From NCBI GenBank assembly GCA_951406725.2, contig OX597819.1, positions 53,444,001 through 53,508,000 of the forward strand: a stretch of 64,000 nucleotides of DNA, in the 5' to 3' direction. Source of the DNA: Octopus vulgaris (taxonomy: Eukaryota). The position numbers and the translations under genes are program-made. This document shows positions 4,487-60,125 of this stretch, piece by piece. The notes beneath the pieces are model-generated. The model was not told where the DNA came from and made no database searches. It worked only from the letters and a program-made list of their open reading frames with translations. The first letter of the stretch is position 1, and every line of letters begins with the position of its first letter.

Positions 4487-5204
4487 ATAAAACAAACACT
4501 AAAAGAAATAACCTCTTCCAACAACATTTTAGTTGAAGGAATGAACATCTTGTTAATTATCTATTATACAATGCATTTGAAAGCCAAAGAGCAATTTTAT
4601 TAAGAATGAATATTATTTAGATCGGTAAATAAAATGTTTTAACAAAACATGCAAATTATGTTCAGCGGTGCACCATGCAGTTCAATTGTAAGAATAGTTT
4701 CATAGTTGAAAAGATATATTATAATTCATAACAATAAAAGAAAAATAAAGAAAATAGCAAAAATAGAGGAGGGGTGTATATTACACTTGAATTAAGTCTA
4801 TCAGTTGAGAACAGCAACAAAGGAAGGGAACAATTGAAGCTAGTCATACAACATTCTATCAATTTAACACTGCGTTACTATGGGATCGTAGGAATGTCAG
4901 AAAAATTGCCTTGCAGTATGTTGTTCTGAGTCTACATGCCATGAGTTCAAATCCTACTGACGTCAACTTTTCTTTACATTCTTTCATGGAAGGAGGGAAG
5001 GGTCAATAAAATAATGTACCAGTAATGTACTGAGGTTACTATATTTGATTATTTCTTTTTCCTGAACTCAAGGTGTTTAGCCTATGTTAGGAACAGTAAT
5101 TATTATTATAATTATTTTGAGAAAGGGGAGCTATCCCAAAGCAGACACAGAACCTGGCACAGCCCTCTGGCTCATCTATTAATTAAATGATGATGATGAT
5201 GATG

Positions 5205-5670
5205 AACATCTTGCTTCCCTGGACATGGACACATTAAAGCTCCATCTGGCAACTGGCTTGGTAGTCACCTGCAAGATTATCCACCATCTTTCCAACAACC
5301 TTGAGCACCTTTTTGAATTTCATGTGTCTAACACTTATGGATTTGCTTACAAAATCAAAAAACAACAGAGCACCCATGACTTTCAGAAACATTTTATCAT
5401 GCTAAGAATTACTGAAGCATGGAATAAACTACCTGCATCAGTTGTTAGCTACTGAGATACTACATCCTTCAACACTTCCATACTTCCTGAAATTCACCAA
5501 CACTACACCTTTCTACACCCATTTCTTCTTCTTCCCACCCCTTTTTTTTTAGACTTTTTCACTGTTTACTGCTTGTGCATATTCTATCTACTGTTCATGC
5601 AGTTTTGGTTACTTTTTCTGATGAGTTGTAATGCACCTGAACACTAGATACAACAAGTTCATTATCATAT
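5205..5670 (+). mobile_element. CR1/L2-like LINE 3' fragment
   Basis: KHFIMLRITEAWNKLPASVV resembles the CR1 ORF2 C-terminal F..R....WN.LP..VV motif. Confidence 0.65.
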
Positions 5671-5887
5671 TCTTTTATTTGTTTCAGTCATCTGACTGCA
5701 GCCATGCTGGAGCACTGCATTTAGTTGAACAAATTGACCAGGGACTTATTCTTTATAAGCCTAGTTCTTATTCTAATAGTCACTTTTGTCAAACTACTAA
5801 GTTACAGAGATGTAAACCCACCAACATCAGTTGTCAAGCAATGGTAGGAGGACAAACACAGAAACACTACCATATACATATATATAT

Positions 5888-6314
5888 CATCATCATCATC
5901 ATCGTTTAACGTCCGCTTTCCATGCTAGCATGGGTTGGACGGTTCAACTGGGGTCTGGCAAGCCCGAAGGCTGCACCAGGCCAGTCAGATCTGGCAGTGT
6001 TTCTACAGCTGGATGCCCTTCCTAACGCCAACCACTCCGAGAGTGTAGTGGGTGATTTTATGTGCCACCGTCACAGGTGCCAGACGAGGCTGGCGAACAG
6101 CCACGCTTGGATGGTGTTTTTTATGTGCCATCGACACAGGTGCCAGACGAGGCTGGCGAACGGCCATGATCGGATGGTGTTTGTTACGTGCCCACAGCAC
6201 GGAGGCCAGTCGATGTGGTACTGGCTACGGCCACGTTCGGATGGTTTTCTTATGTGCCACCGGCACTGGTACCACAAAGATACAAATTCCATTGATGTTC
6301 ATCTAATTTGATTT

Positions 6315-6315
<1 letters not shown>
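5888..6315 (-). mobile_element. RTE 3'-UTR-derived short element with ~60-bp subrepeats
   Basis: Shares ctggatgcccttcctaacgccaaccactcc and the (GAT)n tail with the LINE 3' end at 14745-15300. Confidence 0.85.
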
Positions 6316-6362
<47 letters not shown>

Positions 6363-6369
6363 GGGAGAA

Positions 6370-6692
6370 CCTTCCGTTTCGTGACCGTTGCCAGCACCGC
6401 CCCGTTTCGTGTCCGTTGCCAGCCTCGCCTGGCCCTTGTGCCGGTGGCACATAAAAAGCACCATCCGTTCGTGGCCGTTTGCCAGCTCTGTCTGGCACCT
6501 GTGCGGGTGGCATGTAAAAAGCACCCACTACACTCACGGAGTGGTTGGCGTTAGGAAGGGCATCCAGCCGTAGAAACACTGCCAGATTTGACTGGGCCTG
6601 ATGAAGCCTTCTGGCTTCACAGACCCCAGTAGAACCGTCCAACCCATGCTAGCATGGAAAACGGACGCTAAACGATGATGATGATGATGATG
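6370..6692 (+). mobile_element. RTE 3'-UTR-derived short element
   Basis: Same tail family, ending aaacgatgatgatgatg; opposite orientation to 5888-6315. Confidence 0.85.
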
Positions 6693-6784
6693 ATAGGGAG
6701 AGTTTACGAAAAAAACAAAAGACGAAGACAGGTGATGTACAAAACAAACAGATGTATTAGTATAACACTCAGGAATAGAAAAGT

Positions 6785-6820
6785 CTTTTACATTTCGAGC
6801 CTACGCTCTTCTACAGAAAG
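6785..6820 (-). ncRNA. Minimal hammerhead-like motif, second copy
   Basis: Reverse complement reads cttt-CTGTAGA-a-GAG-cgtagg-CTC-GAAATGTA-aaag; same family as 7922-7957. Confidence 0.45.
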
Positions 6821-7324
6821 GGACACAGAAAAAACAAGGAGAGAAAAAAATGTGTGTAGTGGTTAACGATCTATCATGACGACAGGCTTCTTTCACAACA
6901 CCATCATCATTTAATGTCCAATTCTCCATGCTAGCATGGGTCAAGTGTAGTTTATTGAAGCAAATATTTTTAGAGCCGGATGCTCTTCTTGTTGCCAAAC
7001 CTTACCTGTTTCCAAGCAAGGTGATATTTCTCCCATGGTCAAACATGCTTTACAAGGAAAACTGGCAACGAACAACATCACTTGTATGATGGCAACAATC
7101 ATTTGCAACCATCATGTGATGTCAAAACAAGGAGTCACATACACACATCTGTATGTGCAGTTCAACTGAACCCAAAGCTAAATGGTTAGGGAAGAAACTT
7201 CTTCACCACACAGCCAGCTTGCAGCTATATATATATATAATCATCATTTAACACCCATATCCCATGCTGGCATGGCGTGGCTTTTTTTGTAAATGTCAGA
7301 TGAAGGCTTCATAACTTTTTTTTT

Positions 7325-7551
7325 CTTATTGCCCACAAGGGGTTAAACATAGAGGGAACAAACAAGGACAGACAAAGGAATTAAGTCAATTACATCAACC
7401 CCAGTGCATAACTGGTACTTAATTTATCAACTCCGAAAGGGTGAAAGGCAAAGTCGACCTAGGCGGAATTTGAACTCGGAACGTAAAGACAGATGAAATA
7501 CCGCTAAGCATTTCACCCGGTGTCCTAACGTTTCTGCCAGCTCGCCGCCTT
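7325..7551 (-). mobile_element. tRNA-derived SINE family B with a Nin/Deu-like central domain; copies near 4880(+), 13370, 37930, 41720, 42025, 61290(+), 62255(+)
   Basis: Reverse complement ggcgagctggcagaaacgttag...gagttcaaattcc...gtcgactttgcctttca...gataaattaagtaccag, with an A-rich tail. Confidence 0.8.
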
Positions 7552-7921
7552 AACTTATTAAACAAATGCCACAGATAATTTGTTTATAATGATCAAGCGT
7601 TAGTGCTGTACATTATCTCACTACCTCTGTCAAATCAACATGGACTGTACAGGTGCACTGATGTGTCATACTTCAGATGACGAAGTGGTTGCAGAGCAAT
7701 GCAAAATGAAGTGTTTCTCTCAAGAACACAATGCACTGCCCAGTCTGAAAATTAAAACCACAATTTAGCAATTGTGAGTGCAGCACCTAACCACTGGGCC
7801 ATGTGCTTTAGGAAGAACAATGTGTCATCAGTAATGGTGTGTGTGTGTACACATGTGCCATGATTGATTGCTAAATCCACAAGTTTTTTTTTTTTCTCTC
7901 TCTGTTTATTTCCTCGTGTTC

Positions 7922-7957
7922 CTTTCTGTTGAAGAGTGTAGGCTCGAAACGTAAAAG
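7922..7957 (+). ncRNA. Minimal hammerhead-like motif in a short Penelope-like repeat
   Basis: cttt-CTGTTGA-a-GAG-tgtagg-CTC-GAAACGTA-aaag; palindromic ACGT in stem III; A6 replaced by T. Confidence 0.5.
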
Positions 7958-8024
7958 ATTTTCTCACTTTCCCAAGCATCAAACTAATACACCTGTCTTT
8001 GTCTTTTGTTTTTCTGTAAATTCC

Positions 8025-8072
<48 letters not shown>

Positions 8073-8238
8073 CGTTGTTACACATCGCTAGTCACAATCC
8101 GCTTTTGCATTGTTTTAGCTTAATTTCCATTATGTCCTTTAAGTTGTATGAAAATTTCATGCATTTATTTGTAAAGTTAAAGAAGTTATTAAAAATTGAA
8201 ACCCATCAGTGACTTTTGGGACACACTGTGTGTATGTA

Positions 8239-8286
<48 letters not shown>

Positions 8287-8307
8287 TATACATATGTGTG
8301 TAATGCA

Positions 8308-8620
8308 GGACACTGACTGGGAGAACAATGCCTGTCATCGCCACAGATGGAGGAAGCAGGTTAAGGAGGGGATCGACACTTTTGAGAGAGCATGTATCCA
8401 GCATGAAGAACTTAAGCGAGTTGCGCAAAAGCGCACGGCTCGTATAGTGAATGGGGAAAGCTTGGTCTGCAATGTTTGCAGTCGTGTATGCTTGTCAAGA
8501 GCAGGGCTCATTAGCCACTAACAGAGCCGCAAATGCAAAATATAAGTTAGTTCTAGAGCGCACAATGTTCCTGAAGGTCAGCAATGGTCTTCCTCGGTCA
8601 CGAGTGGACGCCCATCATCA
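8308..8620 (+). mobile_element. BovB-like RTE 3' end with C2H2-type finger
   Basis: WENNACHRHRWRKQVKEG...CNVCSRVCLSRAGLISH. Confidence 0.7.
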
Positions 8621-9244
8621 TATATATATATATATATATATAGCTGAAATTCTTCATAAGCTTTACTGATATTATAGGGCTCTTCTAAAATTTTAGAAAT
8701 TATTTTTATTCTTGAACAACTGAGAATCATCTAAAGATATATTTTAGCAATAGATTCATTACCACTTATATTTCAGTCCTTTCTTCCTAACAAAGGTCGG
8801 AAAGAAGTTAGCAAGAAGATGATCAAACAATTAAAACGTAAGCAATAAAACATTGTCATCACCAAAGACCACATACTTCACCAATTTTACATCCATTTTC
8901 TACACCAGGATAAGTTGATTAGTAGCCGGGTTGATCATTGTTATATTAGTTATATCTTCCAACATCAAAATATCATACAAGATAAAAATATAAATTAAAC
9001 CAGACTCTTAAAAGAGGTTTCAAGTAGAACAGTCAAACTTACATGACACTCTGGGGGGGGGGGGACTAAAGCATTGAAACAGAAGATAACTAAATCTTTG
9101 GTAAATTCTGATGGAGGCTTCAAATGCTCCCCCACCCACCACTTCTGTCCTCCCACCCTCTCACTCTTCTGTTGTTCTTCTCACACACCACCCTGTTGTT
9201 CTTCTTCAATTACAGGAATCTGTCCAACAAAAATATTAGCTTAC

Positions 9245-9323
9245 CTCTGTCAACAGGCAAATCGGTTTCAAGTGGCAGGAAATTCAGCAACACTGACAGC
9301 CGGCACCATAAAGACTGTGAACT
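9245..9323 (-). CDS. SMG5: SMG5 exon, last found in window (79 nt, phase 0/1)
   Basis: ttgttatag|...|gtaagc; SSQSLWCRLSVLLNFLPLETDLPVDR (SMG5 SSQSLW.RLSVLLN.LP motif). It follows an intron of about 16.9 kb. Confidence 0.93.
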
Positions 9324-10894
9324 CTATAACAATTGAAAAGATAGAAATCATCAAAAAAAAAAAGTAAAGTAAAAAAGAAAAAAAAGAAGCACAGAATCTT
9401 TCACAGATACAAAAACTACAAAAGATAGAAATACTAAGTTGATGCTGCAATATATAAAAATGACCATTAAAAAAAAAAGGGGGAGGTATAAAATAAAGAT
9501 TATAAAAAAAAAAAAGTAGCCACACAATATTTGCCATTAAGTAGTCATCTCCAAATTAATTCATTCAACAATTCTGTATTTGGTTGTCTCAAGTATTTCT
9601 CATGAGTATTTATAGCCATTTCCCGAAATTACACTTTTAAACCTAAATATAGGTCTTGCCTCATTCAGTTCTCAAAGAGAATTCTTGAGGAAATCATTCT
9701 ATTTTATCTACATCACACCTTCTTGGTCTATTTCTATTCTCACGATGATCTCATACCAGATAATGGCACTTCAGAAAATTGCCACCCAAATCTTTCTTCC
9801 AAACTAGTATTAAATGTCGAGTAGCTAGTAATAATTATACCTCACTTAAAACTACATTTATGTTATTTTAATTAAACAGCACACTCGTTACATTATATTG
9901 TTTCAGAGGTTCAAGTTTCATTATATACTGCAAAAAATATAAGAATCCTTGGGTCATTGTAATAAAATAGTCAGGCTAAAAGCCCTCTCCAACCTTCTTG
10001 ATAGCTTGTTTTTATTATGACCAACAAAAGTATAACTTTGTGGTTAAGAAGTCTATTTCATAACCATGAGGTTTTGAATTCAGTCTTATTGAACAGTACC
10101 TTGAGCAAAATATCTTGGGCCAACCAATGTCTTATGAGCGAATTTGGTAGACAGAAACTGTATTCAACCCAGGTTTGGCCATATAGGCACAGTCATAGCT
10201 GTATGGTGAAGATGTTTGTTTCCTGACCACATTGTTTCAGGTTCAGTCCCACTTCGTGATATCTAGGGCAAATGTCTTCTACTATAATCCTAGACCAACA
10301 AGAGCCTTGGAAGTGAATTTGGAAGGCAGAAACTGAAAGACATCTAGTGTGTGCGTGTGTGTATTGTTTGTTCTTTCTCAAGCCATGCCTGACTCATAAT
10401 GGACCAGTATCCTGGTTTCATTGGTGTATAGGTTCCCTACCTGGATGGGACGCTGGTCCATCACAGGTGAGCTGCTAGATGCAAGAGGAAAGAGCGAGAG
10501 AAAGTTGTGGCAAAAGAGTCAGCAGAAGTTCGCCATTACCTTCTACTGGAGCCACATGGAGCTTAGGTGTTTTGCTCATAAATACACACATTGCCAGGTC
10601 TGAGATTCGAACCTGCGAGTCCACTGCTCTAACCACTAGGTCATGTGCCTACACACACACATATAAGCAAGGAGATTTTCTCCCCATCACTAAAATAAAA
10701 TAGGATAGACCAATCAAGTTGTGATAGAAGGAATCCTAGCCACCATTCACTGTGAGTTCACTGAACAATGATGGTGGTCATCTCATCTACCTTTTCATAG
10801 AAGCAATGGCCTGAGGAATGTAAAGAGCTAAGTGCACACATACACATAATCATAATAAAATAAGTTTCACAAATTTACTGTTGTATTCTGCTCT

Positions 10895-10935
<41 letters not shown>

Positions 10936-11284
10936 CAACCATCCATCTACCAAATCCACTAACAAAACTTTAGCCCACCCAGGGCCATAGTAGACAAAAC
11001 TGTTGCCCATTTGGCTGGGAAGCAAACATCTCAACTACACACAGTTATGTCTGTGCCTGGAAAATCTTAGACAAAAATAGCAAATTAACAATGCTTAAAG
11101 GATAGAAACAAAACATGTTTACTTAAAAGATTAATTCCCAAGAACATCACTGAATCAATAGGAATCAATTATGGTGTATCATTTTGTTATAAGAAGCTTA
11201 TTAGTACAGACCACATGATGCTAATGGATGATGAGTGTTAGATGAAAAAGTAATAGACATTGTTAGTAGAGGCTAATCATAGAT

Positions 11285-11531
11285 CAGTGTTTCTCAACCA
11301 GGGTCCACATGACCTTTGAGGATCCATATAAGATTCTGTTGTCCAAAATTATGTGTACTAAATTGGTTACACTTCCACAATGTACAAAATATGGTAACAA
11401 TTTCTTTTATACAATTCTTATTCAATAATTAATTATAAAATATTTTTTAAATATTGAATGGCTATTGGGATCCACCTGAGTAAAATAGAAATCAAAAGGG
11501 TTCAAGGACAAAATGTGGTTGAGAACCACTG
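11285..11531. mobile_element. hAT (Charlie-like) MITE
   Basis: TIRs CAGTGTTTCTCAACC / GGTTGAGAACCACTG; 8-bp flanks tcatagat / ccatagat. Confidence 0.8.
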
Positions 11532-12844
11532 CCATAGATGAAGAAGACTAAAGATTACTAGTAGTAGTAGTAAAATCAGATCTTAGCATACTGGTCTTCA
11601 CAGACAAGATGATGAAAGACCAAAACCGTTGACAATGTTCTGTGCAGCAGACCAATTGAAAACATTAGCATAGAATGAAAACAAAGACACTAAAATGATG
11701 ACAACAATAGTAGAGGGGTGAAGGGAGAGGTGGGGGGAGCATGGGTGGAAGACAAGAAGCATTATTGTATTTTTGTGGAGTGGGTAACATCATTAAGGAG
11801 TGATGTATGATATGAAGTGGTTGTTCTTTGGTGTTGTTTCTATGTACATAGTGTGGTGTGTTATGATTTGTTGGGTACAACTGTTAGTTTTAATCTTGTG
11901 AAGTAAAAATTTTATTTTGTGTTATTAGTGGGGTTTTTTTATTGCACTGAAGTTGATGTTAAGATAGGTTAAAAGAATACTGTAGTGGTTGAGTGTAGAG
12001 ATTTAAAAGCCATGTTTTGTGGTGAAAAGAAATACATGAACGTTTCTAAGCACTCGTAAAAAAAAAAAAGTGTTTTCTAAAAGTAAATTGATAATGATAT
12101 TCAAAAACAATGTCCTATAAACAAAGTCTGCAGTAAGTGGTGAGAAATAAATAAATTGATTGAATGAATGTAAAATTAAACAAAATTAAAATTCCAAAAC
12201 AAATTCCTTTTATAAAAGGACAAAAAAAAATAAATAAATAATATTTGTAATTAGAAGAGAATATTTGTAATTTTTAATTTTTGCTGCTTAAATTTCTGAG
12301 ATGCCAGCAACACAAATTAAATAAATGATTAACGAAAAACCAGCTACAACCGCTAAGTCTTTGAGAACAATAATAAGTCATTTCCACCACTTAGAATACT
12401 TGTAGTGTTTTCTAGTTTTCAAGTGGCCTTGCAAATTATATTACACAAATATCTTCAGATCTCCTCAGTTTGTTGAGTACCAAAAATCTGGCTAATGTCT
12501 AGGAACATTAACCCAGTTTCATGAGATGCAGAGAATAAAAAATACTAATAAATGAAGGAATAAATAAAGAGAAACATGAATGCAAAAATAATGTTTAAGT
12601 CTGCTTCACAAATTTGGAGATCAGCAATGCTAATGAAAGTGATTTATAGCTTACAATATAATATCCTTAATACATCTTGTTAATAAAATTACTCTTTTTT
12701 CTTCTTTTTTTTTTACTCCAATTAGAAATTAATTAACTGTATTTGTGAAATAATGCTTTAAGTATTTCTTAAATAATGCATCACTATTAAGTAACTTCAA
12801 GTAGTTACTTGATAGGGATGACAATGATGAAGATGATGATAGGG

Positions 12845-12881
<37 letters not shown>

Positions 12882-14744
12882 ATGAATTATAATTTTCATC
12901 TGTTCTCATTGTACAATGCTTATTTTGAAAGTTTTTTTGTTTTTCAAAGTGAGCCCAAATGACTTAAGTCTAGCATATTATTGAAGTTAAAATAATAAAA
13001 ACTGCCTCAGTTACAACTGTTAATAGTGTGGTATCAAAGTAAAGTAAACTTTGTCCAATTCACTAATTTTGTTTTTGTACCAATGTCAGAGAGATGTAAT
13101 GACTGGACACTCATGTTTCTTTAACACTGTTAATGATGTAAGATATTTGATAACATAAAAGACGTCCAATCATATTAGACAACCCCTAAAACTTCAACAA
13201 TGCATATTTAAGATAGAAAGTTTTTAGCACATTGAAAGCATGTAATATCAGGAGAAATTTAGTTTATGGGAGGAACAACTTCACATACAGGACCTGGGGA
13301 GATTTTTTTAAAGATATTTCAGTGCATATTCAGGGAAAAAAAAAATTATAATGCATTAAAGCATATAATATTGGTTTCAAATTTTGGCACAAAGCTAGCA
13401 AATTTGGGGAGGGGGTAAGTCAATTAAATCAACCCCAGTACTCAACTGGTACTTATTTTATTGACCCCGCAAAAGCATGAAATGCAAAGTCAACCTAGAT
13501 GAAATTTGAACTCAAGATGTAAAGCCAGATGATATGATGCTAAATATTTTTCCTGGTGTGCTAACAATTCTGCCAGCTCACCACCTTATGGAGGCATATA
13601 AATATTGGGACGACTTTTACATACAGGATCAACTTCGCGTATAGGATGTTTTAAGGCTTCTTTTTTTCTTTTTTTTTTGGAGGGAAAATAGTGTATCTTA
13701 TATGCCATCTAATACAGTAATTGAAAACAAATTCAGCTGAGAAAATTATAAACTAGACTGATGGACTCGATTAGCCAAGAAATTATTTCAGCACCGGCAT
13801 TCACAAAGGGAGATTCTAACAATACATTGACAGAGAGGTTTTCAATTTAAACCTGAAAAACATACAGTGCTTTTAAACATTTCCCAAGCCACTTGAGTTT
13901 ATATTTTAACCTTTTAACTATATAGTTTAATGTTCTTTAAGATAAATGGAAGTGGTTACAGGAAAATTGTAACGAAACTAAGAATAAAGCCGAAGAACTG
14001 TGTTATCAGATATATTTCCACAGACATACAAACATACATAAAAAAAGAAGTTATCTGCATCTATTTATCATCAGTTCTTATGTAAGAGAATTCCAATTCA
14101 ATACTGAAAGTGATCGAGTTAAGTAGATAAAGTATTAGAGCATCATCAGCGAAGATCTATAGTTGAAATCTACCGCAGGCATTTTATAGAATCTCTGGAC
14201 ACAACTCTCATGTCTACATCTCTTTGTTCACCTAGCTACCTAGCTATTGGCAATAGTTATCAAAACATTCAAGAAATATTAGCTGCAATAGGCAAACAAC
14301 CTCACAGGTACGGCTGCTTGGATAAGGCAGTTGCTTCACAACCACAGGGGTTCCAGTTTGAATACATTGTGTGATACCTCGAGCAAGAATTTTCAACTGT
14401 AGACTTGCATTGGCCAATGCCTTCAAAGAGGAATTTAATAGATAGATACAGAGTAGATATACATCATTTGCGTGTGTGTGTATGTGTGTATTTTTCCATA
14501 TCTAAATTTATCTGAATAATCAATAATTTTGAAACTTCATTTCAAATACATAACTTAGTAATTTGGTAAGTAGACAATGATTAAAAAAGAGTGGGGATCT
14601 GTTATGATTAACTAGAACACTGAAACAAAAGCCCTTACATGATCACAGTCCAATGGCTAAAACCTCTAAAAGTAGCATTTTATAGTCTTTGAACAAAACA
14701 GTTCTACATTTTTTGCTGATTTGGCAACTAGCAATTGTTACCAA

Positions 14745-17135
14745 ATCATCATCATCGTTTATTGTCCGTTTTCCACGCTAGCACGGGTTGCACGGTTCGA
14801 CCGGGGTCTGGGAAGCCAGGGGCTGCACCAGGCTCCAGTCTGATCTGGCAGTGTTTCTACAGCTGGATGCCCTTCCTAACACCAACCACTCCGCGAGTGT
14901 AGTGGGTGCTTTTTACGTGCCACCTGCACAGGTGCCAGGGGAGTCCAGCATTGGCCACGATCGGTTGGTGCTTTTAATGTGTCACCGGCACGGAAGCCAG
15001 CCAAGGCGGCGCTGGCATCGGCACGTTCGGATGGTGCTTTTTATGTGCCACCGGCACAGAAGCCAGTCGAGGCGGCGCTGGCATCGGCCTTCGTTCGGAG
15101 GGTGCTTTTTATGTGCCACTGACACAGAAGCCAGTCGAGACGGCGCTGGCAACGGCCACATTCGGATGGTTCTTTTGGCATCGGCCACGTTCGGATGGTG
15201 CTCTTTATGTGCCACCAGCACAGATATCACAACTACTATTTCCATTGATATTTATTTCGATATTCATGTACTTGACTCAACAGGTCTCCTCAAGCACAGC
15301 GGGATGTTCTGGAATCCAAGGTACTTTAAATGGGTAAGGGCTATGCAGAACTGAGGCAGGGGCTATGCGGAACTGGTGCAGAAAGCAGCCCGGGTCTTTG
15401 CAGTCACAGCATATCTCCAGAGATCTCGGTCCTTCGCCATTGCCTCAGTGAGGCCCAACACTCTGAGGTCATGCTTGACTACCTCATCCCATGTCTTCCT
15501 GGGTCTACCTCTCCCCCTGATACCTTCAACTGTTTGGGAGTGGCACTTCTTCACACATCTCTCCTCATCCATCCGCAGTACATGACCATATCATCGCAAG
15601 CGTCGCTCTTGCACACCGCATCTGATGCTTCTTATGTCCAGCATTTCTCTCAGGGTGCTTACCCTCTGTCGTGCGCACACACTGACATTACACATCCAGC
15701 GGATCATGCTAGCTTCATTCCTTTCAAGTCTACGCATGTCCTCTGCAGTCACAGCCCATGTTTCACTACCGTGAAGCATGGCGGTTCACACACATGCGTC
15801 ATACAATCTACCTTTCACTTTGAGAGAGAGAGACCCTTTGTTGCCAGTAGGGGTTAGGAGCTTTCTGAACTTTGCCCAGGCTATTCGTATTCTAGTGGTG
15901 ACACTCTCTGAGCATCCACCTCCAATACTAACTTGGTCACCCAGGTAGCAGAAACTATCAACTACTTCTAGTTTCACCCCCTGGAGTGTGATGGAATCTG
16001 TTTTCTGAGTATCTGTGGTGTCTATTGTCCCTGTGCATCTGCTGCACATGAAAGCTATCTTATCAGTTAATTTCCCTTTGATGTTGCTGCACCTCTTATG
16101 CGTCCATAGCTTACACTGGGTGCATCTTATGGAGTTCCTACCTACACCTTTCCTACAGATCGAGCAGGGCCACCTGCCTGAGGGGGTGTGTGCTGAGTTC
16201 GCCTTTCTGCTTACTATAACTTTGGTCTTTGCCTCATTTACTCTAAGGCCCTTTGATTCTAACCCTTGCTTCGACACCCGAAATGTCTTTTCTAGTTCCG
16301 GTAGTGATTCTGCTATGAGAGCCAGGTCATGAACATAGAGGAGCTCCCAGGGGCAACCTGTTTTGAATTCCTCTGTTATTGCCTGGAGGACTATGATGAA
16401 TAAAAGGGGACTGAGGGCTGAGCCTTGGTGTACACCTACTTCTACCCGGAAATCTTCACTATATTCGTTGCCAATCCTAACCTTGCTGACAGCCTCTCTG
16501 TATAGGGCCTGTACAGCCCTTATTAGCCATTCGTCAATCGCCAGTTTCCGCATCAACCACCAGATAAGGGATCGGGGGACCCTGTCAAAGGCTTTCTCCA
16601 AGTCCACAAAAGCTATGTAGAGGGGTTTATCTTTAGCTAGGTACTTCTCCTGCTGTTGTCGGACCAGGAATATAGCATCAGTGGTGCTTCTACCCGGCAC
16701 AAAACCGAACTGCATCTCATCTAAGCAAATTCTCTCCCTAATGAGATGGGTTATGACCCTCTTTGTGACCTTCATCACCTGATCCAACAGTTTAATACCC
16801 CTGTAGTTATTTCTATCTAGAGCATCACCCTTACCCTTGTAGCAGTTGACTATGGTGCTGCTACGCCAGTCATTGGGTATGACTCCATTATGAACTACCT
16901 GGTTTACAATGCGGGTGACTAGGCCATAGCCCACATAGCCAGCTGTTTTAAGCATCTCAGCAGTGATTCCTGATGGGCCGGGAGCTTTACCTGGTTTCAT
17001 ACCCTTAATTGCCTTAACTACAAGGGAACTGTCTATTCGGATAGCTGGTCCCTCTACTGGGTCAACATTTGGCAGGCTCTCCTCCTCCCATTCATTCTCC
17101 ACATTCAGCAGTCTTTCATAATGGCTTCTCCAAGC
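14745..17135 (-). mobile_element. 5'-truncated, inactivated RTE-clade LINE (RT, Cys-finger insert, C-terminus, 3' UTR, (GAT)n tail)
   Basis: ORFs 15786-17102, 15591-15779 and 15363-15572 carry KAPGPSGI, NYRGIKLL, QFGFVPGRSTTDAIF, FVDLEKAFDRV, GVHQGSALSPLLF and RGRGRPRKTW. Catalytic YADD reads YVHD; stops after YDACV and RRLR. Confidence 0.93.
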
Positions 17136-17254
17136 AAATGTCAGTCATTATTCCTGACTCCCTTAATTTTAGCAATTAGAATTACTGTCATGATGCAGCA
17201 CCACCATGTTTTTTAATACTCAAAACACATACACAATTTTTTGGAGGTTATGGT

Positions 17255-52991: not shown

Positions 52992-53063
52992 TTTCGAGAA
53001 TTGTTGTAAAAGATATCCAACAAATAAAGAAAGTAGACAAAGAATCTTTTGATGTCTCGTGGT
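52992..53063 (-). CDS. SMG5: SMG5 exon (72 nt, phase 2/2)
   Basis: ctttacag|...|gtaagt; PRDIKRFFVYFLYLLDIFYNNSR (SMG5 DIKR motif). Confidence 0.93.
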
Positions 53064-54170
53064 CTGTAAAGAAAGAAAGAAATTATAAAATTTACTGAAA
53101 ACTAATTATGTCAGTCAGAATAGACAAAGGAATAATATCATATCAGATTTACATAGAGGATCAAGAAATTCTATCTTTTCTAAAGCACTGATTGTACTTT
53201 TATAATCAAATACTTAAGGCTTAACCTTTTTAATATCAACCCACCAGAGACCACCACAGGTTCTATGATACAAACTTGTTGTTTTAAAGATATCTTAATT
53301 AAACTTTCCATCAAAATTCCATACAAATTTATAATCTAACCACCAGCTTATCATTTAAAGTCCATTTTCCATGCTGGTATGAGCTGTCCAGACTCCAACT
53401 GACTGTTGTAGCACCGTTTCTACAGCTGGATGCCCTTCTTAATGCCAACCACTTTACAGAGTGAGCTAGATGCTTTCATCATTTTAAAATTTAACTGCAA
53501 CAAATGTAGTAAATTTCAACAGAAATATGGTAACATAAGAGTTAAATAAAAATTTGTATTAAAATAATTAATATTCTGGAATCTAGTACCAGAATTACTG
53601 ACTACAAATCTGATCAATCAAAAAGAGGAAATGGGCTGAGACAACTGACTCGATCCAATATACAACTGGTACTTATTTTACAAAGTCCAAAGATGGCTTT
53701 CACATAAGGTGATCCAGCCTGAGATAAATGTATAAATAAGTAGATTATACTGACTCCTGTACCCTGAGAGTATGCCCTAGCACTTCACCACCATATATCT
53801 CTCTCTTGATCTACTCTACTATCCCATTTATATTCTAATCCCCATTCCAGGAGTATGCGCCAACACATTGCAACCATCTCTCTCTTGCACTCTTGCTTTC
53901 TTCTACTCTCTCTCTTTCTCTCTCCCTCTGACTAGTTAACCATGTATCTCCTCCTCAGCAATACACCTGTTTCTGTGTTCAATCTTGAACACTCTCTTTC
54001 TCTCTCTGACCGGGTAATCATGTATCTCCTCTACAGCAAGACAACTGTTTCTGTCTCTCTGTCACACTCTAACCATTCATCACCTGACCCAAGATCACCT
54101 CCGCCAATGCTCTCTCCCCTCTCAATGGATCTTCTCTCACAATATGTGTGTATGTATCTTGAGCCAACAG

Positions 54171-54241
54171 GTTTTTAGGATCTGACGATATGCCATAAAG
54201 CATATCTTTATGGACAGGAAACCTAAGGTAATCCCATAAAC
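54171..54241 (+). ncRNA. Type I hammerhead ribozyme fold
   Basis: Core CTGACGA 54182-54188, GAAA 54218-54221, cleavage triplet GTA 54228-54230. Stem III ACC/TAA/GGT; stem II CCATAAAG/CATAT/CTTTATGG; stem I GTTTTTAGGAT/ATCCCATAAAC (9 of 11 pairs). Confidence 0.75.
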
Positions 54242-54978
54242 TAGTCTTCTCCATTTTTAATATATATATATATATATAAAGCATATATATATATATATAT
54301 ACATAATTATTTGAGGGAATATTATTCCTAACTTACAGGGAAAAATTCAATTTAGAAATACTAAATCAAATTTCACAATATATAGCTGTCCACCGAAGTT
54401 CCATATAATATGGGAATGAAAAAGGAAAAGGAGGAAAATACAATGTTACTAAAACAAAGACACATTCACAAGTAGACAAACAAATGGTTTGATTAGGGTA
54501 TAATCAATTTGGCGAGGAAACTAAAGAGAAAATATTACGACGATGACCACCACAGATCTACAATGGAAGAATTCACCACGTGTAGTTGAGGGTAAAGAAA
54601 TCGTTGAACGACAGTAAGTACGTCCAAAATTTATAAAGCAGTGACATACATACATACATAGATACTTGTAGCACACATGTATATACGTGCAGAGTGAAAA
54701 TAAATCACACTATTTAATGTGACGGACTACACTGCAAAAAAATCAAAAATTTCATTTCTGTTTACAAACTTTCTCCGTGTCTATACGCACAAATACTTTT
54801 ATGTATACACACGCAATATTTAAGAAAAAAAGGAATATACACAAAAAAGAACGAAACATGTGTATATACACACGCAATATTTAAGAACAAGGAATATACA
54901 CAAAAAAGAACGAATCAAAAACAAATATTTTATATTTTACTTTTATCGTATTGTTGTTTACATTTTCTGTCTCTACGG

Positions 54979-56016
54979 ATGACCAGAACCAACAGAATCG
55001 CCATGGTGAAATCCATAGCGGCGTGCGATAAGACTGGTCGCTGCTCTAAAATAGAACACTGCCCAGAAAATCACACCTGCCACATCTGTACGGAACCCGA
55101 AAATACGTTCCGTAATCGCTGGGTCGAATGTGGGACATGTCTCATCTCTGTCTGCCTCCAATGTGCCACGGACTTTCAGAAGATCCCAGGCCAAAAAAAG
55201 AGCCATCATAATGCTATGATGGATAGACTCTGGAAGATGGTTCAGCTTAAATCTTGGACTTTTCAGTGTCAGGCCTGCGTGCCTCCACAACCGACGATTG
55301 TGTCTCCCCCTGCCACTCCCGTGGAGGAGGCGGAACAGCAACAGCAGCAACAACAAAATCAACCACAACCAGAGCAGCAGCAACAACAACAGCAACAACA
55401 ACAGCAGCAGCAACAACTAGAGCAGCAGCAGCAGCAACAACAAAATCAACCACAACCAGAGCAGCAGCAACAACAAAATCAACCACAACCAGAGCAGCAG
55501 CAGCAACAACAACATCAACAACAACAACAGCAACAACAAAATCAACCACAACCAGAGCAACAGCAGCAACAACAAAATCAACCACAACCAGAGCAACAGC
55601 AGCAACAACAACAACACCAATTGACCAGTGCGGTTCTTGCAGAACTGCAACAATCGATCTGTGCTTTAAAAGGGGAAGTAGCAGGAATAAAAGCAACCAT
55701 TCAGGTTGGACTCCACAATGAGGGGTCTTATCGGAATGCTCTGCTAAAGAACCTCCCTGTACCTGTACCTCTTGTCGCATTTAAGACCGCGGATTCTGCC
55801 ACCCATGAAGTCATTGCCATTGGGGTGCCAGAAGACATGGCTGATCTTCAGGCTTTTGCTGCCAACTCAGCCAAAGACCTAGGCTGCGTTCCCCCAACGG
55901 GTGCTATCCGCCTTGGACGACCTGGCCCAAAACCTAGGCTCATCAAGTTGTCTTTTACGGACCCCACTGAGGCAACCTCTTTTGAGATAAACATAAAAGT
56001 AAGTATCTCAAGTTGA
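54979..56016 (+). CDS. Intact 345-aa ORF: PHD-like Zn finger, polyQ/NQPQPE repeats, coiled coil, LINE ORF1-like C-terminus; antisense in an SMG5 intron
   Basis: CHIC...WVECGTC.x4.CLQC...WTFQCQAC; five Qn-NQPQPE units; heptads LAELQQSICALKGEVAGIK; SYRNAL; AIRLGRPGPKPRLIKLSF, a motif typical of CR1/L2-type ORF1 proteins. Confidence 0.75.
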   Translation: MTRTNRIAMVKSIAACDKTGRCSKIEHCPENHTCHICTEPENTFRNRWVECGTCLISVCLQCATDFQKIPGQKKSHHNAMMDRLWKMVQLKSWTFQCQACVPPQPTIVSPPATPVEEAEQQQQQQQNQPQPEQQQQQQQQQQQQQQLEQQQQQQQNQPQPEQQQQQNQPQPEQQQQQQHQQQQQQQQNQPQPEQQQQQQNQPQPEQQQQQQQHQLTSAVLAELQQSICALKGEVAGIKATIQVGLHNEGSYRNALLKNLPVPVPLVAFKTADSATHEVIAIGVPEDMADLQAFAANSAKDLGCVPPTGAIRLGRPGPKPRLIKLSFTDPTEATSFEINIKVSISS

Positions 56017-56055
56017 TTGAACAGTTCTGTTCCAGAAAACAAATTTCTTACTTAC

Positions 56056-56181
56056 CTCTGTTGTTCAGGTGGGAGATCACGGGGAGATTTTTGAGATAAT
56101 TCAGTGAATCTTTTAAGATTTTTCTCCAATAGACGTTTTAAATTCCCATGGGCACCATCAAATGGCTTTTGGCTTACCAAA
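56056..56181 (-). CDS. SMG5: SMG5 exon (126 nt, phase 2/2)
   Basis: aaacag|...|gtaagt; LVSQKPFDGAHGNLKRLLEKNLKRFTELSQKSPRDLPPEQQR (SMG5 F.GA.GNLKRL motif). Confidence 0.95.
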
Positions 56182-56247
56182 CTGTTTTGGTAAATAAGAT
56201 ATAAAATAAGTGTTAGAGTCATTAAAGTATATATGAAAACATTAAAG

Positions 56248-56327
<80 letters not shown>

Positions 56328-56800
56328 TTAAAGAATGGGTTACATAAGCTCTTGATAATTATTCAGGTTGTGATGGTAAGTTAAAAACCAAGCACCAGCC
56401 TGAGTTCAATCCTGCCTCTTAAACAAGAAATGAAATTGTTTACTGCAAAATTAACCTTGATCAAATGAACCTATGATCAGATGTTCCAATAATACCTCTC
56501 TTTTTGCATATATCTACAACAACCATACCTAATGCATCCTTTCTGTTTTTAAGACGACAGGGTGAGATTTGAGGAAGATTTGACTGCTATTTTTAAGAAT
56601 GTCACAAGAGACGGCAGACTTGATCTATCATCTATTTGAACAGAATCTTGGATATCTTCAACAGAATTCACTCTATTGTAAGCATTCAGACCAGGTCTTC
56701 AGTCAGAATGCTTGGTCTCCAATCAGAATACTTGAGATATCTTTCTCTCTCTCTCGCTCCTTCCCACCAGTCTCAGAGACCCTGTAAAGACTCATAGGCA

Positions 56801-57205
56801 TCCTGACTATATAATAAAAAATGTAAAATTCTGTCTGTCCAGGACTCCTGTGTCTCAGTCTACATTTACTCTACATAGACATACCTTTTTGAAATTAGGA
56901 TGATCCCAGGATTGAAAATGAGCCTTTCATTTGGTTCTTAAACATCCAATGTTGGGATCAGCTCTGGATGAGGATTTGTTATATGCTAACAGTTGAAAAT
57001 TCAGATTTTAAAAGAACTCTCAAAATTTGTGAACTTAGAAGTTTTTCATTTAAATTGAATTTAAAGTAATACTATATTTGGTAGGGTAATGCCATATTGG
57101 TAGGTACCAATAAATGCTGTATTATTACTGCTCTCTTGAGTTTTGGGCCACAGGCCCAATTAGCCCTCCACAAGAGCCAGCTTAAAAGTCTGCAGCTTTT
57201 AAGCA
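56801..57205 (+). mobile_element. Non-autonomous Helitron-like relic; isolated 3' end also at 25977-26055
   Basis: 5' TC..ACTATATAATAAAA..ctgtctgtcc; 3' hairpins gggcc..ggccc and cttaaaag..cttttaag. The 26 kb copy ends ..aagttagt, close to CTAG. Confidence 0.5.
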
Positions 57206-58110
57206 CTTGTGATCAAGGAAGATTACTCTGCTTACCTTAGATGTAGTACCTACACCATACAATTTTGTGGTAAACAGTGTAAAAGAACAGTTCTAAAGAC
57301 ACATAATTAAATGAGTTATGTAAAAGCATCTAAATTAATTTTCTATCTTGTGAAATATTCCTATAACTAGTTCAGCATACACACACACACACGCATGCAG
57401 CTTATATAGAGACAGTGTAGAAGTTTTAAAATAAAAGATGAAGTTATTTTACCAATGGGTTCAATCTTGATCAAGTGCACTAATGACTAGAGGTATTCCA
57501 ACTATGACAAAACCATCTTTTAAGGGGTCATGTGTAATTCCCCTTTTTGAAAATAGTAGGGGGAGATCTGAGGGGTATTTGGCTGTTATTTCTAAGAACA
57601 CTGCTAAAAAACAATTCATTTGTTCTATAGTCTCAGGTCAGCAATGACTGAGTGAACATATGGTGAAAGACATTCTAGGTGTGATTATCTCATCTTATTT
57701 TCAGCATATCCAGCACCACATTATCCAATGTATCCTCTCTTCTTTTTAGACAGTTGGGTATGATTTATGGCAAATTTGGCTGTTACTTCTAGCATGTTGC
57801 TGTAGAGGATCCCTCACTAGTTTGCAAGAGATTGCTTAAAACTTAGACGCAGTGGGGTAATTTTATAATACCCCACTGTTTTATCATAAATTATATAAAT
57901 AATACGATAAAATTGTAACAATTAAAATTTTTATAATTTTATATTATTTACTGCTAACTCAAGTTTATCTTTAATATAACAAGGTGCTAAGGTGCTAATA
58001 TATTTTCAACAAACAGGTAATTTAATTAATCTTAAGCGATAGGTTAATGAAAAAGATCGTATATTTAATAAAATATAACCAGTATAATCAACTCCTTATC
58101 ATTAACTTAC

Positions 58111-58189
58111 CATCTTATATAATGGTAAGCTGCTTCTGTGTGGAAATAACGTGACGCAACCAAACTTCCCAACTGGTTGTGAGGTATAC
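58111..58189 (-). CDS. SMG5: SMG5 exon (79 nt, phase 1/2)
   Basis: ttttaag|...|gtaagt; GIPHNQLGSLVASRYFHTEAAYHYIRC, the EST1 G.P.NQLG motif. Confidence 0.95.
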
Positions 58190-60125
58190 CTTAAAAATAA
58201 AAAAAAAAATTGGAAAAATAGATTACATCAAGCACAAATTATTCTTAAACAACTATTAAAAATGTCTTTCTTTTTTTTAATTCCAGGCATTAACAACATT
58301 TGTGAACAGATTTACTTGTAAGCATTGTGGTACTTTGTTATGCAAACACAATATACTATGAAGTATAATAAATGTTTTTATAAGTCAGTATCACGTTCTA
58401 CTAGGTCAGCAGTGCTTCTTATATTATTTTTGTTAAGGCTGTCTCTACAGATATTCTATAGAACTTATAGCCAGCACTGATTTTTGCTACAACGTTTCAT
58501 TGTAAGCATTTCTGTTTACAAGTAAAGGCATTTATCGCTTTACAAAACATACTAATATATACCAAGGGAGATAACTGTTGACTATGTTATGATGCCATGT
58601 TATCTAATAAAAATTGCTAATACTTCAGAAAAAATCCTATGAACTTCACAGCACCATATTCCTCCTCTGTAAGTTCGAGAATATATGCATAATATGATAA
58701 ATTGTTGTTAGAATTAAAACAGCTTATGCCATAGCAACAACAATAAGCTCTCGGTAAAGAGATTCCCCCTGAAACTCAATTTAAATTCCAATTTAATATA
58801 AGGCTTTTTCATTCATTTAAGCAATTTATAATACACCTTTCCTGTAAAAATTTTCATAACTATGTCATCATCATCATTATTTAATGTCTGTTGTCCATGT
58901 TGGCATGGGTTGGACGGTTTGACTGGGCTGGTAAGCTGGAAGGCTGCATCAGACTCCAGTATGATTGGCATGATTTTCTACAGCTGGATGCCCTTCCTAA
59001 CGCCAACCAGAGTGTAGTGGGTGCCTTTACGTGCCACCGGCACAGGTGCTATTTGCGTGACATCAGGGTGCGTTTACGTGCAACCAGCATGGGTGCCAAT
59101 TTGCGTGACACCGGTATCTACCACGACTGCAATTTTGCTCAGCTTGATGGGTTTTCTTCTCAAGCACAACATAATGCTGTGAAAATATTTTTTCTTAAAA
59201 ATTCCTCAAAGGCGCAGGCATGGCTGTGTGGTAAGAAGTTTGTCTCCCAACCACATGGTTCCAGGTTCAGTCCCACTGCATGACACCATGGACAACTGAA
59301 GCCTTGTGAGTGGATTTGGTAGACAGTAACGGAAAGAAGTCTGTTGTGTGTGTCTTTGTGTATGTGTCTGTCTCCTGCTACTGGTGTGTTTAAATCCCTC
59401 ATAACTTAGCAGTTCAGCAAATGAGACCAATAGAATAAGTACCAAGCTTTACAACAAGTTACTGGGGTCAGCTCATTCAATTAAAATTCTTCAATGTGGT
59501 GCCCCAGCATGACCACAATCTAATGACTGAAACAAGTAAAAAGGAGGGGGGGAGCTTCAAATCATCTCAGGTGTCTTTAACAAAGATGGAAGATGAAATT
59601 CCACCACAAGTTCTAGTCCTTGTGGAGTGGTGACTTTGAGCTATTCCAGTAAAGCGCAAGCTCTTGGTAGGACCTCCCATGATGGACAGGTCAAAGGATA
59701 GAACCCAGACAAATAAAGACGACCTCCATGTAGAAGTTAAAGATGGGTTGGTGTAAGGTCAACACCCCTACCTAACAAAAAAAAATCGAAGTTACAGAAG
59801 CATTGATGACAATTCAGAATCAACAGGACCTGAAAGAGGAAGGCACCTTCATGATGCCGCATAATCCAAAAGGAGGAACCAAGATCCTGCATTATCTGTC
59901 AGGTTCTGACCCAGAACTCACAAAGGAGGGGGGAAAAGAGGATGCCCAAAAAATAGCTAGAGGCAGGATACCAAGGTAAAGCTGAAAAGGAAAGGATCCA
60001 GCTAAAGAGAAGCAGAGTCGTGAGCAGTGGAAGAGGGTCAGCAACAGCTAATGTTGCATAGGGAGTGAAGGTCTTCAGTAAATAAAGAAGATGAAATTAC
60101 TAAGAAATGAAGAGTTCAAACTTAC

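Follow-up and report, generated by a model that had tools for sequence, protein, structure and literature searches.

A 64,000-nucleotide (nt) stretch of the Octopus vulgaris genome (assembly GCA_951406725.2, contig OX597819.1, positions 53,444,001 to 53,508,000, forward strand; hereafter the window, numbered from its first letter) carries a 345-codon open reading frame (ORF) on the + strand, running from ATG 54979 to TGA 56014-56016, within an intron of a gene that we take to be SMG5. Here, we report that this ORF is very likely the 5' part of a young, 3'-truncated copy of a high-copy repeat, lying antisense in the SMG5 intron and broken off inside the repeat's first reading frame (ORF1) at 55981, an ordinary fragment and not a new gene. 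The parent repeat is likely a long interspersed nuclear element (LINE) of the CR1/L2 type with a type IIC ORF1, and the fragment is probably dead and spliced out with the SMG5 intron. As it stands, it matters little, being one broken copy among many; the element does mark an octopus LINE family that is very young, is transcribed, and has an ORF1, and whose abundance is apparently very different in two related organisms. A search of the literature by title or abstract opening found no paper on this ORF1 family; the supplements of other papers, which could name it, were outside its scope.

Contigs of 4 of the 24 listed sequencing runs (X4, X7, X10, and X19) were compared with the window over 55621-56248. 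X4 comes from organism B and X7 from organism C, neither being DNA of the window's own species label; X10 and X19 were treated as RNA runs because both contain spliced SMG5 contigs. Run contigs show presence and not absence, drop rare forms, and hold no strand information; contig depth is no copy number, and only its order of magnitude was used. Depth in X4 was 5058-16316 over the ORF and 17.1 over the adjacent intron (~300-950×), and in X7, it was 443-552 and 5.45 (~80-100×). Likeness of 99% or better was found for 45 of 64 and 16 of 19 contigs compared, and the longest X10 and X19 contigs had 0 differences from the window over 55621-55981 (361 nt). Among the 22 loose-end rows listed (6 further rows are unlisted), there were 8 distinct upstream junctions inside the ORF, as expected of 5'-truncated LINE copies elsewhere. 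The ORF at 54979-56016 is the ORF1 of a dispersed multi-copy family, and this family is transcribed, from copies that run on past 55981. The family-to-flank depth ratios of organisms B and C lie ~10-fold apart, a hint of a lineage-specific burst. One X19 RNA contig (780 nt, depth 24), meeting the window at 55940, joins a 5'-truncated family copy to 750 nt of other sequence and is another family insertion within a transcript.

At the protein level, a search with the window ORF gave 3 real relatives among 5 matches, and a profile search gave 15 proteins at an E value of ≤0.001, to which a second alignment (A2) added only P0023. Six of the 13 relatives checked were O. vulgaris gene models on 5 different contigs (34.6-225.7 Mb), mostly fragments; P0002, P0009, P0010, and P0016-P0018 extend well beyond the point at which the window ORF diverges. 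P0012 (XP_014770999.1), an O. bimaculoides threonine dehydratase model, carries at its end a 70-residue piece of the RNA recognition motif (RRM) of this ORF1, which may reflect true exonisation or else an error in the gene model. With tblastn, the window yielded no second copy of the element, and metagenome scans with alignment A1 or P0002 returned no family locus.

The ORF product consists, in order, of a Cys-rich finger, a Q-rich stretch, a predicted coiled coil, and an RRM-like start. By alignment, its N terminus (54979-55281, + strand) contains the Met at which the family starts, a further Cys/His cluster, and a PHD-like finger of C4-C-C3 form. Its identity to 5 relatives is 55-67%, and it has a Cys at the PHD His position, as do 3 of 4 aligned relatives with sequence at this site. 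Atlas leads for this finger were PHD clusters at 0.87-0.88 (below 0.9), its structure model was of low confidence (predicted local distance difference test, 54.5), and the best VIA row, a PHD, reached only Z 2.2 (rmsd 3.0, 52 aligned), which is no clear match; neither the window ORF nor 4 relatives had a Pfam match to PHD or Tnp22. The linker (71 Q in 96 residues) is encoded by a CAG/CAA tandem array (55333-55620, + strand; TRF period 33, score 297), and the linkers of relatives are Q/P/S-rich with a different sequence. The remainder, at 55621-55981 (+ strand), is a high-copy coiled coil plus partial RRM, identical to the main family contigs. The model of P0002, a full-length relative, comprises a coiled coil, an RRM, and a domain at the C terminus (CTD); its top 4 Foldseek matches were human L1 ORF1p (E values of 3.9e-4 to 1e-3; 2ykp, 3.9e-4; 2yko, 5.7e-4), and VIA aligned it to 2w7a at Z 8.8 (rmsd 2.5, 80 aligned), tied with other RRMs. 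Judged by this model, the full-length relative is folded like L1 ORF1p. Human L1 ORF1p (2ykp, 2yko, 2w7a), the best match, differs in its ~15% identity and in lacking an N-terminal finger (PMC4120745), and the window copy itself lacks RRM strand 4 and the CTD. An earlier note on this stretch, made from the letters alone, was right in its LINE-ORF1 identification (finger, coiled coil, RRM), in the antisense position in SMG5, and in the Q-rich linker and the Cys at the PHD His position; the fold search that it had proposed led, through P0002, to L1 ORF1p.

A PHD together with Tnp22 defines ORF1 type IIC, reported for CR1 subgroup 5 and L2 subgroup 6 (Metcalfe and Casane 2014, PMC4120745). The Tnp22-like coiled coil-RRM-CTD module is present in the family, on the P0002 model and Foldseek, whereas the window copy has the coiled coil and a partial RRM only. 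Membership in a type IIC LINE family is supported for the Tnp22 module and for the multi-copy pattern with variable 5' truncation. The likeness to type IIC ORF1 LINEs lies in an apparent N-terminal zinc finger ahead of coiled coil, RRM, and CTD, and in dispersed copies with variable 5' junctions; by contrast, the window finger, read from its residues, appears to be C4-C-C3, with a further Cys/His cluster upstream of it, a long Q-rich array forms the linker, and the window copy keeps its 5' end and lacks its 3' end. Assignment to a clade needs the reverse transcriptase (RT). For O. vulgaris, Table 1 of PMC13282606 lists 13 CR1 families that were active recently and that comprise 787 near-full-length insertions; these are a likely home of this family, though it was not matched to them here, and it may already lie within the existing CR1 library of that study. 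That paper's supplement, its repeat library aside, has no ORF1 or PHD entry. An octopus brain-transcriptome study reported full-length candidates for RTE and Dong elements only (PMC9115989).

The copy ends abruptly. Loose ends at 55977-55981 occur in 6 rows from all 4 runs, where family contigs leave the window; they extend ≤234 nt past the break and there read YHLASVKAGR, as does the O. vulgaris protein P0004. In P0002 numbering, the break falls at residue 318, within the second helix of the RRM, so that 87 residues with RRM strand 4 and the CTD are missing, and any protein made from the copy would not be expected to work as ORF1p. The missing C terminus is absent from both strands of the window (tblastn and motif search), and a twin-priming inversion was therefore rejected. 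The following 6 nt (55982-55987), covered by no contig in 4 of 4 runs, match neither the family nor the intron of the other organisms and are possibly filler. Host SMG5 intron DNA (55988-56055; − strand gene) comes next, in single-copy contigs, and includes a + strand GTAAGT at 55999 and the read-through stop at 56014-56016. Single-copy contigs of X4 and X7 begin matching at 55988 (depths of 17.1 and 5.45); below that position, those of organisms B and C carry ~805 and ~378 nt of other DNA, respectively, and the last 21 nt of organism C's other DNA have no match in the window. From this other DNA and the 6 unmatched nt, it appears that the junction has lost host DNA along with the 3' part of the element.

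Two routes to such a copy can be proposed. A longer insertion may later have been cut by a deletion that removed the 3' part of the element along with host intron DNA, or the 5' part of the element RNA may have been captured at a break by endonuclease-independent insertion; the data are explained equally well by either. Endonuclease-independent insertions of human L1 show extra nucleotides at the junction and deletion of target DNA (PMC1920257), and such nonclassical insertions are matched here by the 6 unmatched nt and by organism C flanking DNA that is absent from the window. They were, however, described for human L1, and deletion after insertion fits the present case equally. A 23-nt direct repeat (53720-53742 and 55983-56005, 83% alike) lies on either side of the element. 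As a target-site duplication (a 9-mer in a 19-of-23 match), this pair was rejected, since the organism C sequence by 55988 neither resembles the DNA at 53720 nor occurs in the window.

Neither of the 2 other organisms has the element beside 55988, its 3' junction, and the copy probably inserted once the window's lineage had separated from organisms B and C. The intron flank differed at 3 of 261 positions from organism B (X4) and at 0 of 86 from organism C (X7). At 0.3% divergence, the probability of meeting no stop is 0.86; with 0 differences from the main family contigs over 361 nt, the copy needs no selection for its open frame, and we infer that only its youth accounts for that frame. Long open transposable element frames are not unique in the window either, because an RT fragment at 15786-17144 has an uninterrupted frame of 452 codons, contrary to the earlier note's view that every other such relic is broken. 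That fragment (− strand; RVT_1 E value of 1.4e-25) is part of a LINE reverse transcriptase in which a PHD finger follows the RT core (PF00628 E value of 3.5e-5, just above the cut-off) and may be related to a zinc-finger RTE reported in octopus brain (PMC9115989).

We consider it quite likely that the family has an ORF2 with apurinic/apyrimidinic endonuclease and RT domains (APE-RT) downstream of ORF1. The alternative that fares best differs in the parent only: an ORF1-only, HAL1-like, nonautonomous element mobilised in trans, of which the window copy would again be 3'-truncated. We regard this as unlikely while giving it some room. The very high ORF1 depth is easier to explain if the element is short, 1527 longer candidate proteins included no ORF1-ORF2 fusion (weak evidence), and HAL1 (half-L1) is a mammalian precedent (PMC5753468) that resembles the window copy in having an ORF1 without a visible ORF2. 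HAL1, as described in that source, nevertheless keeps a whole ORF1 as a family whereas the ORF1 here is cut, no tail or 3' end was seen, and recently active O. vulgaris CR1 insertions, in their hundreds, average ~4.1 kb (3,207,572 bp/787; PMC13282606), which fits two ORFs. The copy-number check suggested in the earlier note came out in part against its spliced gene: many near-identical copies exist and continue into the rest of ORF1, and an APE-RT ORF2 was not seen within the ≤234 nt past the break.

A poorer prospect still is that the 3' truncation arose in assembly, by a mis-join at a repeat of many copies, and that the real locus has a longer element or none. It would account for the failure of any of the 4 runs to bridge 55981-55988 and for the host DNA of organism C that is missing from the window. 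Yet bridging is not expected of these runs, none of them being DNA of the species label that matches the window best, and the SMG5 exon order and frame are intact on both sides of the element.

The earlier note had proposed an exonised or domesticated ORF1 gene of ~356 amino acids, spliced on the + strand through 54613>54987 and 55998>58287, with an intron spanning two SMG5 exons. Its motifs all exist: GTAAGT at 54614 and 55999, AG at 54985-54986, GCCATGG with ATG 55003, and a candidate terminal exon at 58287-58361 (24 codons plus stop) with AATAAA at 58367, the whole (58287-58372, + strand) confirmed in sequence and lying within an SMG5 intron; they are in phase (332 + 24 codons). A + strand GTAAGT within 40 nt of a given point, here the break, has p ~0.01, and by a post hoc filter, 58287 is the sole + strand terminal-exon look-alike in the 64 kb (there is 1 more on the − strand). 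The window holds 37 GTAAGT against 36.2 expected, a chance frequency, and the look-alike in the SMG5 intron is probably due to chance. The peptide of 58287-58358 (+ strand) has a CxxC..CxH pattern and a weak FYVE match (E value of 0.02); its likeness to the Cys-rich end of piggyBac transposases is probably also chance.

Other evidence makes the spliced gene highly improbable. No RNA contig of X10 or X19 covers 55982-55998, although bin depths reach 63-107 over the ORF and 32 and 8 over SMG5, and neither run has a contig (the contigs being without strand) for the junction 55998>58287. ORF1-like sequence had been claimed to end at the donor, which it does not: homology stops at 55981, and the GTAAGT at 55999 lies 17 nt beyond that, within intron DNA found as single-copy sequence in two other organisms. 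The 345-codon ORF stands as described (54979-56016), except that the count starts upstream of the claimed acceptor, so the spliced form does not carry all of it. ATG 54979 aligns with Met in 4 of 5 relatives; opposite Met 55003, 3 relatives have Thr and 1 has Met. The acceptor is two codons inside the family's N-terminal coding sequence, and its use would remove the family start codon. The words of 54600-58400 are contained in X10 to a share of 0.44, compared with a ceiling of 0.325 if 54614-54986 were always spliced out and 0.413 expected if it were retained; this indirectly suggests that 54614-54986 stays in the RNA as unspliced 5' untranslated region (UTR). The product would have a broken RRM, and identity to a high-copy family leaves no time for selection.

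L1TD1, a domesticated L1 ORF1 (PMC4161310), is the precedent for the spliced reading and likewise is an ORF1-derived coding sequence without ORF2. In that account, it is an old orthologous eutherian gene with a history of selection, whereas the window copy is one of many near-identical ones, missing at its 3' junction in two other organisms. As to being single-copy and diverged, the copy shows 80-950× depth and 0 differences over 361 nt; as to an orthologous site, the organism B and C contigs stop matching at 55988. Both defining tests thus fail, and the domesticated-gene reading fails with them. Were the spliced form true, it would offer a rare view of ORF1 exonisation, open to testing. No more probable is a nascent restriction factor, in which the element promoter and the cryptic donor at 55999 would yield a polyadenylated antisense mRNA for a truncated ORF1p that, by co-trimerisation, poisons the ORF1p of an octopus LINE family now in a burst, its carriers making a product with finger, polyQ, and coiled coil and without an intact RRM or CTD, at the first step of domestication.

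Several observations count against a young, truncated fragment of a LINE. No ORF2 was seen in the window after the ORF, as the earlier note had remarked, or in the contigs, which reach ≤234 nt past the break. The 55981/55988 junction is supported by the window assembly alone, being bridged in 0 of 4 runs. As candidates for a target-site duplication, the flanks share only chance-level 8- to 9-mers. The contrast in divergence between host and element amounts to 3 differences only. The Cys spacing of the finger fits a PHD with Cys for His, and neither Pfam nor fold confirms a PHD. A rare spliced transcript could escape the contigs, from which rare forms are dropped. Two GTAAGT flanking the ORF with a tidy terminal-exon look-alike 3' of it are somewhat unusual, and the low probability of a donor-like motif so near the break and the single + strand candidate exon at 58287 point the same way.

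Upstream of the ORF, the inferred 5' UTR of the LINE copy (54500-54978, + strand) contains the GTAAGT at 54614 and the pyrimidine tract. It is marked by CpG observed/expected ratios that rise from 0.3 or less to 1.2-2.3 from 54500 on, and the 5' boundary of the element lies somewhere in ~54310-54640. A 57- to 59-nt tandem duplication (54802-54917, 79% alike) lies within it; some LINEs carry promoter monomers, to which this duplication may be likened. On the strand of SMG5, a strong acceptor-like tract at 54733-54760 (− strand) could, from its letters, be a cryptic splice site in SMG5 pre-mRNA; it was not seen used.

The host gene is on the − strand. An exon at 58111-58189 matches PF10373 (EST1_DNA_bind; E value of 3.9e-4), with RNA loose ends at 56182 that match it. 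The next, at 56056-56181 (PF10373 E value of 7.7e-4), is joined to 58111 by RNA contigs of both X10 and X19, and X10 also joins it to 53063. The exon after that, at 52992-53063, was found through an X10 loose end at 56056 that maps to 53042-53063, and the frame is open across the joint. Both EST1_DNA_bind matches, each from a single short exon, fall below the Pfam cut-off; the domain matches show the EST1 family, and the name SMG5 is our presumption. The donor at 56055-56050 (− strand) is where the earlier note had placed it. The element lies wholly inside the ~3-kb SMG5 intron at 53064-56055, and spliced SMG5 contigs of the RNA runs skip it. Elsewhere, two abundant families of short repeats resembling short interspersed nuclear elements make up most self-matches of the window, at 58865-59470 and ~25 other places.

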